Below, in pieces: positions 7,983 to 64,000 of a stretch of DNA of 64,000 nucleotides; within the stretch, counting starts at the first letter, position 1, and every line of letters begins with the position of its first letter. Location of the stretch: NCBI GenBank assembly GCA_038087875.1, contig CM075990.1, positions 7,070,001 to 7,134,000 of the forward strand. The letters run 5' to 3'. Under the pieces are notes generated by a model. It did no database searches and had not been told where the DNA came from. It was given only the letters and a program-made list of their open reading frames with translations. Made by a program: the position numbers and the translations under genes. This DNA comes from Malacoraja senta (lineage: Eukaryota).

Positions 7983-8374
7983 GGGTCAATGCAGGGATGA
8001 TGTCTCCCATATTTGTGGTGTCTGAAACCAGGGTCACAATCTCAAAACGAGTGGAGAGCCATTTGGGACAGATATACGATTTTTTTTCACCCTTAGGATT
8101 GTGAATTTTGTAATTCTATGCCCAAAAGGCATGTGGATGAGTATATTTAAAATAGATTTCATGTTTGTTTTCTGAATCAAGAGTTGTGGGTTATGCAAAG
8201 AAAGTGGTGTTATGGTGCATGGGTCCAATTGCTTATTCCTATTTATGTTAGTTAATTTCCATTTTACTATTGATAAATTAATTCTAAATCTTGTCCCTCA
8301 TTAAAGTAATCATATCTGGCTTTATTTAAAGCTGTACATCAGCTTTAAGAGAGCGAAGATGTTACTAAATCTCA

Positions 8375-9505
8375 TCATCTCCATCACAGGAGACAGACTA
8401 TTGATCGATATCTACTACAAACCCACTGACTCCCATAGCTATCTGGACTACACTTCTCTCCACCCTGCTTCCTGTAAAGACTCTATCCCCTACTCCCAAT
8501 TCCTCCGACTACGCCACATCTGCACTCAGGATGAGGTTTTCCATACCAGGTCATTGGGAATGTCCTCATTCTTTAAGAAACGGGGGTTCCCCTCTTCCAT
8601 TATAGCTGAGGCTTTCACTAGGGTCTCCTCGATATCCCGCAGCTCTGCTCTTGCTCCCCCTCCCCCCATTTGTAACAAGGACAGAGTCCCCCTTGTCCTC
8701 ACCTTCCACCCCATCAGCCATTGCATACAGCATATAATCCTCCAACATTTTCGCCACCTCCAACGGGATCCCACTACTGGTCACATCTTCTCATCTCCAC
8801 CCCTATCTGCTTTTCGCAGAGACCATTCCCTCTGCAACTCCCTGGTCAACTCGTCCCTTCCCACCCAAACCACTTCCTCCCCAGGTACTTTCCCCTGCAA
8901 CCGCAGGAGATGCAACACCTGTCCCTATACCTCCCCCCTTGACTCCATCCAAGGACCCCAACAGTCTTTTCAGGTGATGCAGAGGTTCACTTGCACCTCC
9001 TCCAACCTCGTCTACTGTATCCGCTGTTCCAGGTGTCAACTCCTGTGCATCGGCGAGACCAAGCGCAGGCTCGGTAATCGTTTCACTGAACACCTCTGCT
9101 CAGTCTGCCTTAACTTACCTGATCTCCCGGTTGCTCAGCACTTTAACTCCCCCTCTGACCTTTCTGTCCTGGGTCTCCTCCATTGTCAGAGTGAGGCCCA
9201 GCGCAAATTGGAAACACAACACCTCATATTTCACTTCTGTAGCTTACACCCCAGCGGTATGAACATTGAATTCTCTAACATCAAATGCTCTTGCTTTCCC
9301 TCTCTCGCCATCCCCTCCCCCTTCCCAGTTCTCCCACCAGTCTTACTGTCTCCGACTACATTCTATCTCTGTCCCGCCCACTCCCCTGACATCAGTCTGA
9401 AGAAGGGTCTCGACCCGAAACGTCACCCATTCCTTCTCTCCAGAGATGCTGCTGTCCTCTGAGTTGCTCCAGCATTTTATGTCTACCTATGATTTTCCAG
9501 CCTGG
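8375..9505 (+). mobile_element. Penelope-like retroelement (probably Neptune-type), 5'-truncated: RT C-terminus, Cys-rich linker, GIY-YIG endonuclease and terminal repeat
   Basis: ORF 8359-9462: IYYKPTDSHSYLDYTSLHP..SIPYSQFLRLRHIC (RT thumb), FPCNRRRCNTC, NLVYCIRCSRCQLLCIGETKRRLGNRFTEH (GIY-YIG, with YIG changed to CIG). Confidence 0.9.
9397..9424 (+). ncRNA. Minimal type I hammerhead ribozyme motif at the Penelope 3' terminal repeat
   Basis: CTGAAGA-A-GGGT(CTCG)ACCC-GAAA-C-GTC: both conserved core boxes, 4-bp stem II, palindromic ACGT helix III and a GUC triplet. Confidence 0.65.
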
Positions 9506-27944: not shown

Positions 27945-52441
<24,497 letters not shown>

Positions 52442-55400
52442 CTAGCCTTCCTCTCTCTGGGTTCTTACTGTTCGCGCTGAATGATAGAGAGGGACGACCA
52501 GCTTTTAAAAAGCTCTAATTGCATTTTAATTTTATTGGAATCGGTTTGCCATATAAATATGACTTTGAATTCTGTTGGATTTTGACACAGTAACTTAAAC
52601 ACAGCAACGTTTATTGTGGGGAACAACCCTAAAGCATGACTTGTACATTTGTAAAGGACTTGCATTTAACATCACTACATTTAAGTCTGTTTTGGAGGAA
52701 GAACAGAAAAATACAAATAAGCTCTGGCCTCCAGCCTGTTGAGGAGCAACTTAGTTAGGCTACGTGTCACTGTCGCATGAAGTGATTTCTGCCCTTTGAG
52801 TATTCTGGGAACATCTCTACTCCACTTGGCTAACTGCTAGTTGTGGACTAGGTCAATAAGTTACCATGTTTCAAGACCAGATTGCCAGTGTCCATAAATT
52901 CTGGTTGACTGTGGCTTGCCTACTTACACATCCAAAGCTAAGCCCGAGTGCGTTTTAAATTTTGATTCAGCCGTTTTGAGTCAGGCTACTGTGTACAGAG
53001 TTAAGAATAATGACACCAGTAAGAACAATCACCTCTCCACGCATAGGGCAGTGGAGGGAAGCAGAATTGAGATGTGAACACGTGGTTTTGAGAAGATTAG
53101 ATATCACAAGACTGAATGAGTGTTTTATTTTATCGAGTGCCAGCTCTGAATTCATTGTAATACGATCACATTGCCCCAAATGAGCTGTTCTTTCTAATTA
53201 CAAGTGATTTGGTTTAATTCCTTTCTATTATTCCAGTTCACAATGTAGAGTGCCCAGCAATAAAAAAAGTTTCATTTGTAGCTGGCTTTTCCTAACACAA
53301 AAAAAAGTCAACTTTGACGAGAATCCATGGCGTAGTGTTATATTCCAGGCAAACATAAGATCTATATCACTTATAAAGTGCATCATGTCTCCAGAGGTTT
53401 TTAAATAATTGATGAACTACCTCACACAATCAATGTACGATTTCAAGGACGTCGAGCTGCCCACTTTCTTACCAGTCAGTACAATATGGAACGTAACTTA
53501 TTTAATTTATTTCTGTTGTTAAAGAAGTCTCTGGTCCATCCCCAGAAGTTAGCCAAGTTCACAGCTGAAACCGTCGCCTCAGAGGAAATATTGTTCTACC
53601 TGTACTTTGTTAGAGAAATGTTTCATGTGTTTGTATATTTGTTTCCTCATAGTCAACCTGCAATAATATTTGCAAATTGTGATACAGATTTAATTGTAAA
53701 GATGGAAATAGCTGTGGTGTGGTAGACCTATTTTTGAGGATGGTGAGGGGATGATGGTGTTTTCTTCCTGTATAATGAGAAACACAATGGTAATAAGTGC
53801 CACGTTGGGTCGCTGAGGGCACCCTGTCTGGGTTAGTCTTCTTGGTGCATATATGTTGAATGATGTTCTTGCCTCCCTCCTCAATATTTCTGCCCCCCTC
53901 CTCCCCACCCCTCTACTAAATGGGGATATCCAGCGTGTACTGTTGGCATGTCTGAAGCAGAGTGGATATTATATATTAACTAATAAATAATATTGGGCGG
54001 CTCGGTGGCGTAGTGGTAGAGCTACTGCCTTACAGCGCCCGAGACCCGGGTGGGTGCTTGCCTCTATGGAGTTTGTACGTTCTCCCCGTGACCTGCGTGG
54101 ATTTACTCCGAGATCTTCTGTTTTCTCCCACACTCCAAAGACGTACAGGTTTGTAGGTTAATTGGCTTGGTATAAAAATGTAAAATTGTCCCTAGTGTGC
54201 GCGTGTATGGTAGTGTTAATGTGCAGGGATCACTGGTCGGTGCGGACTCTGTGGGCTAAAGGGCCTGTTTCCGCGCTGTATCTCTAAACTAAACTCAAAT
54301 CAAGGTAATGTTCATTTTAACAAACCCCATTCATCCTACTAATTGACAGTGTATGTACTGAAAACAGCTCGCTTCAGTTTCATAACAAAATGGAATGATT
54401 TATTTCATTTTATGAGTGCTCATGTAATAAGCGTAGCTTAATGGGTTCGTGGGATGTTCACAGTGGTACAACGATCTAACGTGAGCAATTTCCCAGAGCG
54501 TAGGATAACTTACAGTCTCTTAACCTTCTAGTTCAAAACAGCTTGTGAAATAGTAACTCCTTCTATCAAAGATTCTCTCAACCACACTGAACACACTCAG
54601 AGCTTAATCCTTTTGTGCTAGGAGTGGATCATCCTTTAACACTGGTGATTACAGGTGGGAATAAGATTTAAATACCTGTCTGCTTATACTGATTACAGTC
54701 GGTTTAAACACAAGTTAAATCATGTTGAGGGTTTCATGAAAATGTTCCGCCCTTCTGGCATAATTTAATAGAACTCTGAAATTTGAACCAGGCTGCAAAT
54801 TAGATGCTAACTTCAGTTTTATTTATAACCTATAGATTTTGATAATTATGTAAACATGAAGCTCAATATATCACACTGTTTGGGCATCACAGCTGCCCGC
54901 TTGGTGCAGTGAAATTACCCGCTAAATTATGGTTCAAAAAGAAGAAAATATAAGTGCTGGAAATTCTCCACACGAACATAATAACAAAAAAGCAGTCAAT
55001 CAGCAGCTGAAAGTGAAACTGGTTAAAGTTTGTCACCACATTCAGCTATCAACATGAAAATGGAAGCCAGTCTATTCATGGAGTCCACCATCCTGTTCTG
55101 AATTTTGCAGTATTTTCTGTTTCCATTACAGTTTGTTTCAAACCAAGAGATCACAAAAATATGCTGCAGTGGTCCTGAGTGTTGTGTGTTTTACATTTAA
55201 ATTACTACTTAAAAACAAAATATCTTATCTTGTTCATCAGTGTTTATTCTCCTCTTCCCCTCCCTCAGTGAAAATCAGTCTCACCATTTTCTCATCATTT
55301 AACTCTGTGTGTGTGTGTGTGAGATACACAAATAATTATGCTGTCAGTGCCAAATTTGTAAGGGGGCGGAAGAAATGGTTTCTTTTCACTAATTCATACA

Positions 55401-55600
55401 CAAAATTTGTCATTCAGTCGCATATTATCCTCTCTGTGGATTAATTCCTACAGTAAGCTCTTTTTTTAAAATACCCACTGTGACCCTCAGTAGTCCCAAC
55501 ATTTTACGTGAAGCTACACTTTGTGAATTTGTATTTCATGCTTTGTCGATGCACCATGATCTTCCAATATGGGAAAAATAAATGTTGGAAGTGTAACTCT
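52442..55600 (+). promoter_or_regulatory. Probable MAPK8 3' UTR with candidate polyadenylation signals
   Basis: About 1.5 kb after the stop has no recognisable repeats. AATAAA at 53259, 53982 and 55577; AU-rich ttatttaatttatt near 53498. The true 3' end cannot be determined from sequence. Confidence 0.5.
53994..54297 (+). mobile_element. HE1-like SINE downstream of the MAPK8 stop
   Basis: gggcggctcggtggcgtagtggtagag head ... gtatctctaaactaaac tail. Confidence 0.82.
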
Positions 55601-56644
55601 CTTGGATCTGACGTGTCTTGCCTGGGTGGATGGATGCGAGAGTGGGAACATTGGCAGGAGGAATGCAACTTGAGAAAAATGATCACGTCTGCAGAAGGGT
55701 CTCGACCCGAAACGTCACCCATTCCTTCTCTCCAGAGATGCTGCCCAAAATGGCGGAGGTTCCCCTCCATTGCGCACTACACGTCAGTCCATTGGATTTT
55801 GCAGGAGTGGTCTATCATAGCCTTCTATGATATTTGATGCTGCCTGTCCTGCTGAGTTACACCAGCATTTTGTGTCTACCTTCAAAATGATCAAGTGACT
55901 CTGTTTCCCCCAAGGAGGTTCATTGTAACACCGGGATAGTCTTAAAATTGCTGCAATCGTCCCAGAATTAGCAGAGGAAGGAAGCACTCCACCTTGCAGT
56001 CTGCTTGCCTGCCCCATCACCTACTTCCTGCCCCATCTGTGGAAGATTCTGTGGGCTTCACTTGGGGTCTCATCAACCACTTCTGAACCCACAATATCAG
56101 GATGGAAGCAAGTCTTCCACAATCCCATGTCACTGCCCAAGAAGAGATAATTGAGTTTTTCCAGCTGCAACTGAAACACTGAGCTGGTGGGTGGGCATGT
56201 TGCTGGAATTCCCAGCTCTTGTATCTACAGGACCCAAGATACCACTTCAGAAATTTCCCAGGAAGGAAATAAACATGAGTTTTTATACCACTAGCGTTTA
56301 TTATAATGTTTTTTTTCCGCTAATTTTATTTTTCTAATTTGGATTTACCCATTTGGATACATTTTAGTTTTGGAGATACACCATGGAAACAGGCCATTCG
56401 GCCCACCGACCTCACGCCAATTATCAGTCACCTGTTTACACTAGTTGTGTGTTATCGCACTTAATCATTCCCTACCCGTTAGGGGTAATTTACAGAGGCC
56501 AATTAACCTACAAATCGGCACATCTTTGGGATGTGAGAGGAAATCAGAGCACCGGGAGAAACGTGGTCACAGGGAGAACGTGCAAACTCCATGCATTCAG
56601 CACTGAGGTCAGGATCAATCCCGGATCTCTGGCACAGTGAAGTC

Positions 56645-62146: not shown

Positions 62147-62918
62147 TCAATGGTTCAATGGTCCTTTATTGTCACGTGTAGTGAGATACAGCGAAATCTG
62201 ATTTACCGTACAGTCATACAAAGAAAAAGCAACACGATACATAACTACATGAAGGTTAAGCATAGACTTAAACATCCAACACAGCGGCGAGTGAGAATCC
62301 CAATGCACACAGCATAAGCGGAGACCCACAGCCACCAGTTCAATGTCCGCGCCACACACACGCTCCTTGTACCGACTGCTGTGACTCTCGCTGCAGTCCC
62401 TGTCCGCTCGAACAGTCAGAAAGACGTCCACACTCGCACCAGGCTCTGGGATGTCCTCACAAAGCCATGTCCCCGCAAACACCGAGATCACTGCACTCAC
62501 AGCACTCCCTCCGAGTCCCCACCAGCGCAGGCAGCACGTCCATCTCGGCGACCTCACATTCCCCACCGTGATGGAAGGCAAGTAACGCATACCTTCTTTC
62601 CTCCTTTTCTCCCGCGGTCGGGGCGAGCGAAACATCGACAGTCGGGGCGATCGAAGCTCCCGCAGTCTGCGATCGAAACCCCGGCGTCGGGGAGATCGAA
62701 GCCCCCGCGATGTTAAGGCCGCAGTGTGGATGGAGATATGATACGAAAAAAGTTGCATCTCTGTCGAGGGAAGATATAAAAAAGTTCCCCCAACCCCAAA
62801 TAATACAACAACTAAAGATACACTAAAACATACAAGTAAAAACAGACTAAAAGCAACAAAAAAAAGAGCGACGAGACAGGCTGTTGGCGAGGCTGCCATG
62901 TACGGAGCCACCCGGTGG
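62147..62918 (-). mobile_element. Internally deleted Rex1/Babar-like element (5' UTR and start of endonuclease joined to the 3' tail)
   Basis: YLPSITVGNVRS..., FAGTWLCEDIP, TVRADRDCSES, CGADIELVAV, then directly the 3' UTR also seen at 26540 and a ccattgaa tail. Confidence 0.65.
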
Positions 62919-64000
62919 CAGTGACCAGTTGCAAATAAAGTGACCTTCCAGTGAGCCGATGCCTGGAAACTGTCCAGCAACCACTCCACGGACTCCAGGG
63001 GAAGGGGAAATGCAGATAGGTTTACACTGGGCAGTGCAAAAATCGATATATGCTTTGTGTTTATGAACATCTGTTGTAGGTTTATAAACAGCTGCCCCAG
63101 GACTTGTCTCTCAAGTTGGCAAATTTGTAATAACGAGAATAATAAAAAATAATGTCTGAAGAAGGGTCTCGACCAGAAACGTCACCCATTTCTTTCCAGA
63201 GATGCTGCCTGTCCCATTGAGTTACTCCAGCATTTTGTATCTATCTTTGATTTAAACCAGCATCTGCAGTTCCTTCCTACCCATTGCAATAAAGAGAGCT
63301 TGTTCTGAAAGTAAACCCCAGACTCCATATGAATTGTTCCTATTAACTCAGGGAGAACATGCAGACTCCACATGGACAGTACCTGAGGTCAAGATTGAAC
63401 CCAGGTTGCTGGAGCTATGAGGCAGGAGCTCTATCAGCTGCATGACTGCACTGCCCATATTTGGAAGGATATGTATTCTACCATAAAATATTAGGCAAAT
63501 CATTGCTTAATGGCAAATTAGACATTAGGGTTTGGCTTACAAGGATTTCTTGAGAAGACTGTCTATCTGATGTTAAATAGTTCATAAGAACCTGAATCAT
63601 TAAATAATTTATTTCTGACTGCTTAACAATTGTTTTTCTTGCCGAGTTACAAAAATATTAATTCTAAAACTAAATCAATAGCTTTTGATTCATGGAATTA
63701 AAAGGTAGATGTTCCAATTAACCACAAAGATTCGACATTAGCATTTTACAAAGCTTAAATTTGAATTTAAAATGTCATGAAATCTAACCTGCTAGAACAT
63801 AGACAACTTAATCCTTTCATTTATCTTCAACATTTTACGCAAGGCAAGCTATAGGCTATTGCTGTCAGTGCAATAAGCAGTTCTTTTGGAGAATTTCATT
63901 CGTGGAAATAACATGTTCCGTTGGTCTAGTCCACCAGGCAGTAGTGTGCATAGAGCGGTAAAGAAGGTATCAGATATACTTGCCTTCATTGCTCCCAGCA

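Follow-up and report, generated by a model that had tools for sequence, protein, structure and literature searches.

Structure of the skate MAPK8 locus

The DNA analyzed here is a stretch of 64,000 nucleotides from Malacoraja senta (contig CM075990.1 of assembly GCA_038087875.1), referred to as the window. Seven exons of MAPK8, the gene for JNK1, were found in it by tblastn, and they encode residues 1-150 and 333-427 (Table 1). The stretch between them, 36043-42429, lacks the exons for residues 151-332, among them those of the kinase core and the pair of alternative exons; the 200-N assembly gap, and not a real deletion, likely accounts for their absence. No neighbouring genes were recognised within the 64-kb window. 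Three long stop-to-stop frames of 385, 281 and 344 codons (8305-9462, 49604-50449 and 62147-63181) gave no Pfam match and are probably repeat-derived.

The assignment to JNK1, first made by a reading of the sequence only, was confirmed by protein comparison. Among the matches listed (120 of 252), the 47-residue p54 tail matches MAPK8 of Rhinoraja, Leucoraja and Amblyraja at 100% identity, shark and chimaera MAPK8 at 98%, and most MAPK10 at 72-77%. A maximum-likelihood tree of 26 rows, hand-picked from the stored protein matches, places the window on the MAPK8 side (support 100/99) and within the skates (95/93). The tree and the tail identity rule out MAPK10 as the identity of the gene. Because the tree was built without an invertebrate outgroup, the branching order of the three JNK paralogs was taken from the literature, in which they are derived from early vertebrate duplications (PMC2453138, PMC8586503, PMC4494069) and a published tree has MAPK8 and MAPK10 as sisters with MAPK9 outside (PMC3202601).

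The last exon is entered through either of two tandem splice acceptors, and the p46 frame closes early, so the motif described below belongs to p54 only, as had been proposed. Acceptors 5 nt apart are also present in the other JNK loci that we recovered (L001-L003) and are hence common to JNK genes, which are described as having a conserved dual-coding region (10.64898/2026.05.28.727796). One contig from a relative (X9), RNA by our guess, joins the preceding exon to the upstream AG and represents the p46 splice form; the contigs are uninformative on the p54:p46 ratio. The matches listed (120 of 252) include skate p54 proteins of 427 residues, two of which come from Logan contigs as well, which suggests that the p54 mRNA exists in skates.

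Table 1. Positions of the MAPK8 features in the window (strand + is the forward strand)
Feature	Position	Strand	Basis or remark
Four 5' coding exons, residues 1-150	27960..36042: about 27960-28079, 30648-30779, 35336-35395, 35905-36042	+	tblastn with skate MAPK8 proteins, 95-100% identity
Assembly gap, 200 N	37250..37449	.	exons for residues 151-332 absent from the window, likely within the gap
Two penultimate coding exons, residues 333-353 and 354-380	42430..44115: about 42430-42492, 44035-44113	+	tblastn
Tandem splice acceptors, 5 nt apart	52289..52295	+	AG 52289-52290 leads to the p46 frame, AG 52294-52295 to the p54 frame
p46 stop, TGA then T	52305..52307	+	sequence
p54-specific tail, 47 codons, the Cys-Cys-Arg codons 52430-52438 last	52298..52438	+	identity to skate MAPK8
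p54 stop codon TGA	52439..52441	+	sequence
CTAG readthrough motif and CC	52442..52447 (CTAG 52442-52445)	+	six bases equal to +1..+6 of teleost-type MAPK10; same in three close relatives
Potential extension, 12 open codons, LAFLSLGSYCSR	52442..52477	+	13 residues if the recoded stop is counted
Second in-frame stop TGA	52478..52480	+	unchanged in the three relatives as far as listed
Possible hairpin, arms 52448-52456 and 52486-52494	52448..52494	+	9 bp, one G-U, starts at +7

The p54 stop codon and the frame behind it

The frame before the p54 stop ends GPLGCCR. The sequence-only reading had described this stop as TGA CTAG CC followed by 12 open codons and a second TGA, and had counted 13 residues in the extension; both statements hold, the recoded stop being the thirteenth residue. 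CTAG directly follows only 8 of the 2398 TGA triplets in the window (0.33%), so the motif is uncommon at a real stop. The open run behind the stop, by contrast, is ordinary and lies at the chance median: from random positions the median run is 14 codons, with at least 12 in 55% of cases and 12 or 13 in 5%. The extended p54 tail matched no Pfam family, and an Rfam search of 51500-56000 gave no match. The extension ends Cys-Ser-Arg, which we take to fit neither the PTS1 nor the CaaX pattern.

A stem of 9 bp with one G-U pair, starting 7 nt after the stop, can be drawn as claimed, but a role for it as a readthrough stimulator was not borne out. Its folding is at chance level (z -0.14, with 87 of 200 shuffles as good), also when the segment is cut tightly to the arms (z -1.25, 24 of 200), and 52494 A>T in the relatives disrupts its end pair. 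Together with the lack of an Rfam match, this led us to reject the stem as a stimulator, and the hairpin is probably incidental.

Conservation in close relatives

For cartilaginous fishes, the post-stop DNA compared here is that of contigs from the window's organism (X1) and from three very closely related organisms (X9, X16 and X19; about 97% alike), over 52150-53300. The sequencing runs listed in a run search were all from near-identical organisms, and none was recorded as RNA, which carries no information on expression. X1 showed 0 differences from the window over the whole stretch and may be the source of the assembly. The three relatives have no listed change in TGACTAG or in the second stop, and no indel in 52442-52616; change counts here and below are of listed changes, and two further differences exist. 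At the substitution rate of the UTR, seven unchanged bases are expected with P 0.78, so conservation in organisms this close is without power. The only listed change in the extension, 52466 T>A, is common to all three relatives and converts Tyr to Asn, and the extension (1 listed change in 42 nt) fares no better than the adjoining UTR (2 in 133 nt).

On a larger scale, the first 170 nt after the stop (52442-52613) have 3 listed substitutions and no indel among the three relatives, whereas the next 687 nt have 27 listed substitutions and several indels; judged from this pattern, constraint may act on the entire proximal UTR. In X9, X16 and X19, contigs from another JNK paralog also aligned at 52334-52371; their flanking letters make this paralog MAPK9-like. 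Among the matches listed in the protein searches (120 of 252 in one of them), none was a read-through translation of a cartilaginous fish.

Post-stop sequences in other JNK genes

A scan of metagenome contigs gave 47 pattern matches, from which five loci were obtained; three of these are JNK exons (L001-L003), and the other two, L004 and L005, are spurious. For viral contigs the yield was 0 of 16, and for prokaryote genomes 1 of 24, a chance match of low complexity. The amniote-like MAPK8 locus L001 reads TGA CTAC, followed by a 41-codon frame; the teleost-type MAPK10 locus L002 reads TGA CTAG CC with 13 codons; and the MAPK9 locus L003 reads TGA TCAG. The UGA CUA C given for human MAPK8 in the sequence-only reading agrees with L001, although this locus is amniote-like and not human itself.

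Trp stands directly after the aligned tail end in 48 of 181 stored proteins. We read these as probable gene calls in which TGA was translated as Trp, since one of them (P0055) equals the L002 extension exactly and another (P0001) has the length of the L001 frame. In the MAPK10-type proteins the first residue is Leu in 12 of 12, and the next Trp follows after 13 residues in 12 of 12; the start is Leu-Ala in 10 of 12, so the short Leu-Ala extension ascribed to MAPK10 is the usual form. The tails of MAPK8 type from bony vertebrates begin with Leu in 20 of 20 cases (8 clusters including near-copies, only MAPK8-type clusters having been expanded), and their second residue is Ser in 19 and Leu in one, which excludes G at +4 in all of them. 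Leu is first in 0 of 16 MAPK9-type tails. These counts come from protein translations; outside skates, L001 is the only MAPK8 locus in which the codon itself, CTA, was read. The MAPK8-type frames past the stop differ in length, with frameshifts even within one cluster, and share neither a coding-type conservation nor a fixed second stop with the skate extension. L001 (754-876) and P0001, both amniote-like, have similar 41-codon frames after TGA-Leu without a frameshift, which may be an extension particular to this lineage or simply reflect UTR sequence conserved between closely related species.

The skate and L001 UTRs have no similarity in blastn, so the kept triplet after the stop stands as an island. 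The skate gene and MAPK10 (L002) are identical at +1..+6. Past +6, the extensions are no more alike than shuffled sequences (DNA p 0.51 and 0.72; for the peptide, p 0.46), and at +5..+12 only 3 of 8 bases match. Homology of the two extensions past +6 was thus undetected (p 0.46-0.72), and the proposed likeness to the MAPK10 extension failed after the first two residues. The skate extension has 12 codons and that of MAPK10 has 13, and both end Arg-UGA; this closeness might be what is left of an extension once common to both. The 7-bp helix across the stop that Loughran et al. noted for MAPK10 forms in L002 but not in the window; neither fold is significant.

The stop context of MAPK10, AG-GTGACT (L002 719-726), can act as a splice donor, and some teleost MAPK10 models (P0069, P0075 and P0122) splice there to other C-terminal exons. 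Skate MAPK8, with AGA as its last codon, is without the GT of this donor.

Interpretation of the skate p54 stop

Our preferred reading, which we hold as somewhat probable, is that the skate p54 stop is a UGA-CUAG inherited from the JNK1/JNK3 ancestor, with a low basal leak and 13 extra residues that are tolerated rather than selected. CUAG in the mRNA entry channel of the ribosome would weaken recognition of UGA by the release factor, and a near-cognate tRNA would compete with that factor and decode UGA; the near-cognate tRNAs for this codon are those for Trp, Arg or Cys. Translation would then run to the UGA at 52478 and give p54 with 13 additional residues, in which Cys-Cys-Arg has become internal, at an expected rate of about 1 to a few percent. 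The most parsimonious history places UGA-CUA, probably including the G, before the JNK1/JNK3 split; JNK3 would have kept the signal and fixed a 13-codon peptide, while in the JNK1 line the UGA-CU(A) core would have been kept and the sequence behind it would have drifted, with skates still carrying the G.

The low leak is expected from reporter studies. All 17 of 17 previously untested human UGA_CUAG contexts leaked in reporters (1.3-6.7%), and UGA-CUA without the G gave about 1.5% readthrough (PMC5868278); since every tested human context leaks, low readthrough at the skate stop is likely. In a mutagenesis study (bioRxiv 10.64898/2026.07.14.738498), CU at +1/+2 was essential, only the -3..+4 window was transferable between genes, and +5..+12 had strong effects in MAPK10. 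Single-copy reporters in the same study gave 0.5-6.4%, and even AQP4, MAPK10 and OPRK1 gave only 0.5-1.9%, so the skate leak could be near background.

The age of the signal is suggested by the residue after the stop. Because Leu is first in all MAPK8-type and MAPK10-type tails and in none of MAPK9 type, the UGA-CU(A) core likely predates the JNK1/JNK3 split, with skates keeping the full CUAG. The identity with MAPK10 at +1..+6 and the sister position of MAPK8 and MAPK10 in the published tree also favour inheritance. What is new here is that Leu, likely CUA, is likely kept throughout JNK1 behind the stop, with no conserved peptide. The sequence-only reading had made the signal ancestral to vertebrate JNK genes in general; this is likely for the MAPK8/MAPK10 pair, but extension to all vertebrate JNKs is unsupported, since MAPK9 is without the signal. 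The skate peptide itself is likely unselected, judging from the absence of MAPK10 likeness past +6, a length at the chance median, a residue-altering change in the relatives, and the drifting MAPK8 frames.

The closest known system is the readthrough of MAPK10 (JNK3; Loughran 2014, PMC4132726), a paralogous gene with UGA-CUAG-CC after the Cys-Cys-Arg of p54 and a short frame closed by UGA. The MAPK10 extension is reported there as always 13 codons long, with a peptide conserved to lamprey, a conserved +5..+12 element, AGG as the last codon and measured readthrough; +4 is G in 68 of 73 MAPK10 sequences, and the MAPK10 account predicts no conserved structure. Skate MAPK8 differs in having 12 codons, an unrelated peptide, 3 of 8 matches at +5..+12 and AGA as its last codon. 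It also resembles those human UGA_CUAG genes that show no coding signature, among them VDR (Loughran 2018, PMC5868278), which have the full motif, a predicted leak of low percentage and an extension without shown deep conservation; the same study found a coding signature in only 4 of 23 UGA_CUAG genes. Unlike the VDR type, the UGA-CU(A) core of the skate gene appears old and is common to a paralog with proven readthrough. The basal readthrough of LDHBx and MDH1x (PMC4359377, PMC4207609) likewise uses a UGA CUA G context and needs no downstream structure, but their extensions end in a peroxisomal targeting signal and the skate extension ends Cys-Ser-Arg. By analogy with these systems, we infer that the skate p54 stop would work like basal UGA-CUAG readthrough.

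Alternative explanations

A selected leak is possible, though on balance unlikely: the UGA-CU(A) stop of JNK1 would be kept leaky across jawed vertebrates with any peptide behind it, cartilaginous fishes would keep the full ancestral CUAG, and JNK3 alone would have fixed the peptide.

Programmed readthrough as in MAPK10 is doubtful. According to this explanation, a JNK1 extension of 13 residues that masks Cys-Cys-Arg is under selection in cartilaginous fishes and has been lost in bony vertebrates. The full motif with CC common to skate MAPK8 and MAPK10, the similar extension length, and the unchanged motif and second stop with no indel in 52442-52616 in the three relatives are consistent with it, as is the palmitoylation of JNK3 at Cys-Cys-Arg (10.1101/2020.11.17.387191). 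Against it stand the skate peptide, which is unlike that of MAPK10 past two residues and is without a Pfam family, the amino acid change as the sole listed substitution in an extension no better conserved than the UTR behind it, and the absence in skate of the MAPK10 +5..+12 element and of the 7-bp pairing across the stop. Furthermore, JNK1 palmitoylation was undetected in mammalian neurons, as far as the accounts of 10.1101/2020.11.17.387191 and PMC7464089 go.

It is quite improbable that MAPK8 and MAPK10 retain UGACUA for a function outside decoding, for instance as a protein-binding site or an RNA element (this region is 3' UTR in the p46 mRNA), with readthrough as a by-product. An island of about three bases kept after the stop with a free frame behind it would fit such a role, and so would a last exon read in two frames and hence under several constraints (10.64898/2026.05.28.727796) and the fact that the single RNA-type contig compared, X9, is the p46 splice form. 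However, the kept bases are exactly those essential for readthrough in mutagenesis (bioRxiv 10.64898/2026.07.14.738498) and are in register with the p54 stop, and no Rfam match was found in 51500-56000.

That the G at +4 is a chance, functionless state specific to skates on an older UGA-CUA, with no ancestral CUAG in the JNK1 line, is very unlikely: G is excluded in 20 of 20 non-skate MAPK8-type tails and was seen only in close relatives of the window's organism, and G alone would arise in skates with a chance of 1 in 4, but +4, +5 and +6 all equal MAPK10 (a post hoc chance of about 1 in 64, assuming independence) and a single loss on the bony-vertebrate stem is more parsimonious than a loss followed by a regain.

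Significance

A full-text search of the open literature, with subscription papers outside its scope, found no paper on MAPK8/JNK1 readthrough. MAPK8 is not mentioned in the available text of the MAPK10 readthrough paper (PMC4132726) or of three other readthrough papers (PMC4359377, PMC4207609, PMC12233894), and none of MAPK8, MAPK9 and MAPK10 is named in two supplements of PMC4359377. Skate JNK1 is thus a candidate UGA-CUAG readthrough gene, previously unreported in the literature searched.

Under our preferred reading of an inherited, basally leaky stop, the motif in skate MAPK8 would make the signal older than the duplication that gave JNK1 and JNK3. If the motif alone has survived, with no function, the skate stop is one more leaky stop of the ordinary kind and adds a footnote to UGA-CUAG biology. 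For MAPK10 readthrough, a paralog with the stop context but without the peptide offers a natural comparison for whether the leak or the added sequence is under selection. If the leak itself is selected, programmed readthrough would predate the JNK1/JNK3 split, and its effect would be to leave part of the p54 pool without a free Cys-Cys-Arg end or to tune p54 turnover.
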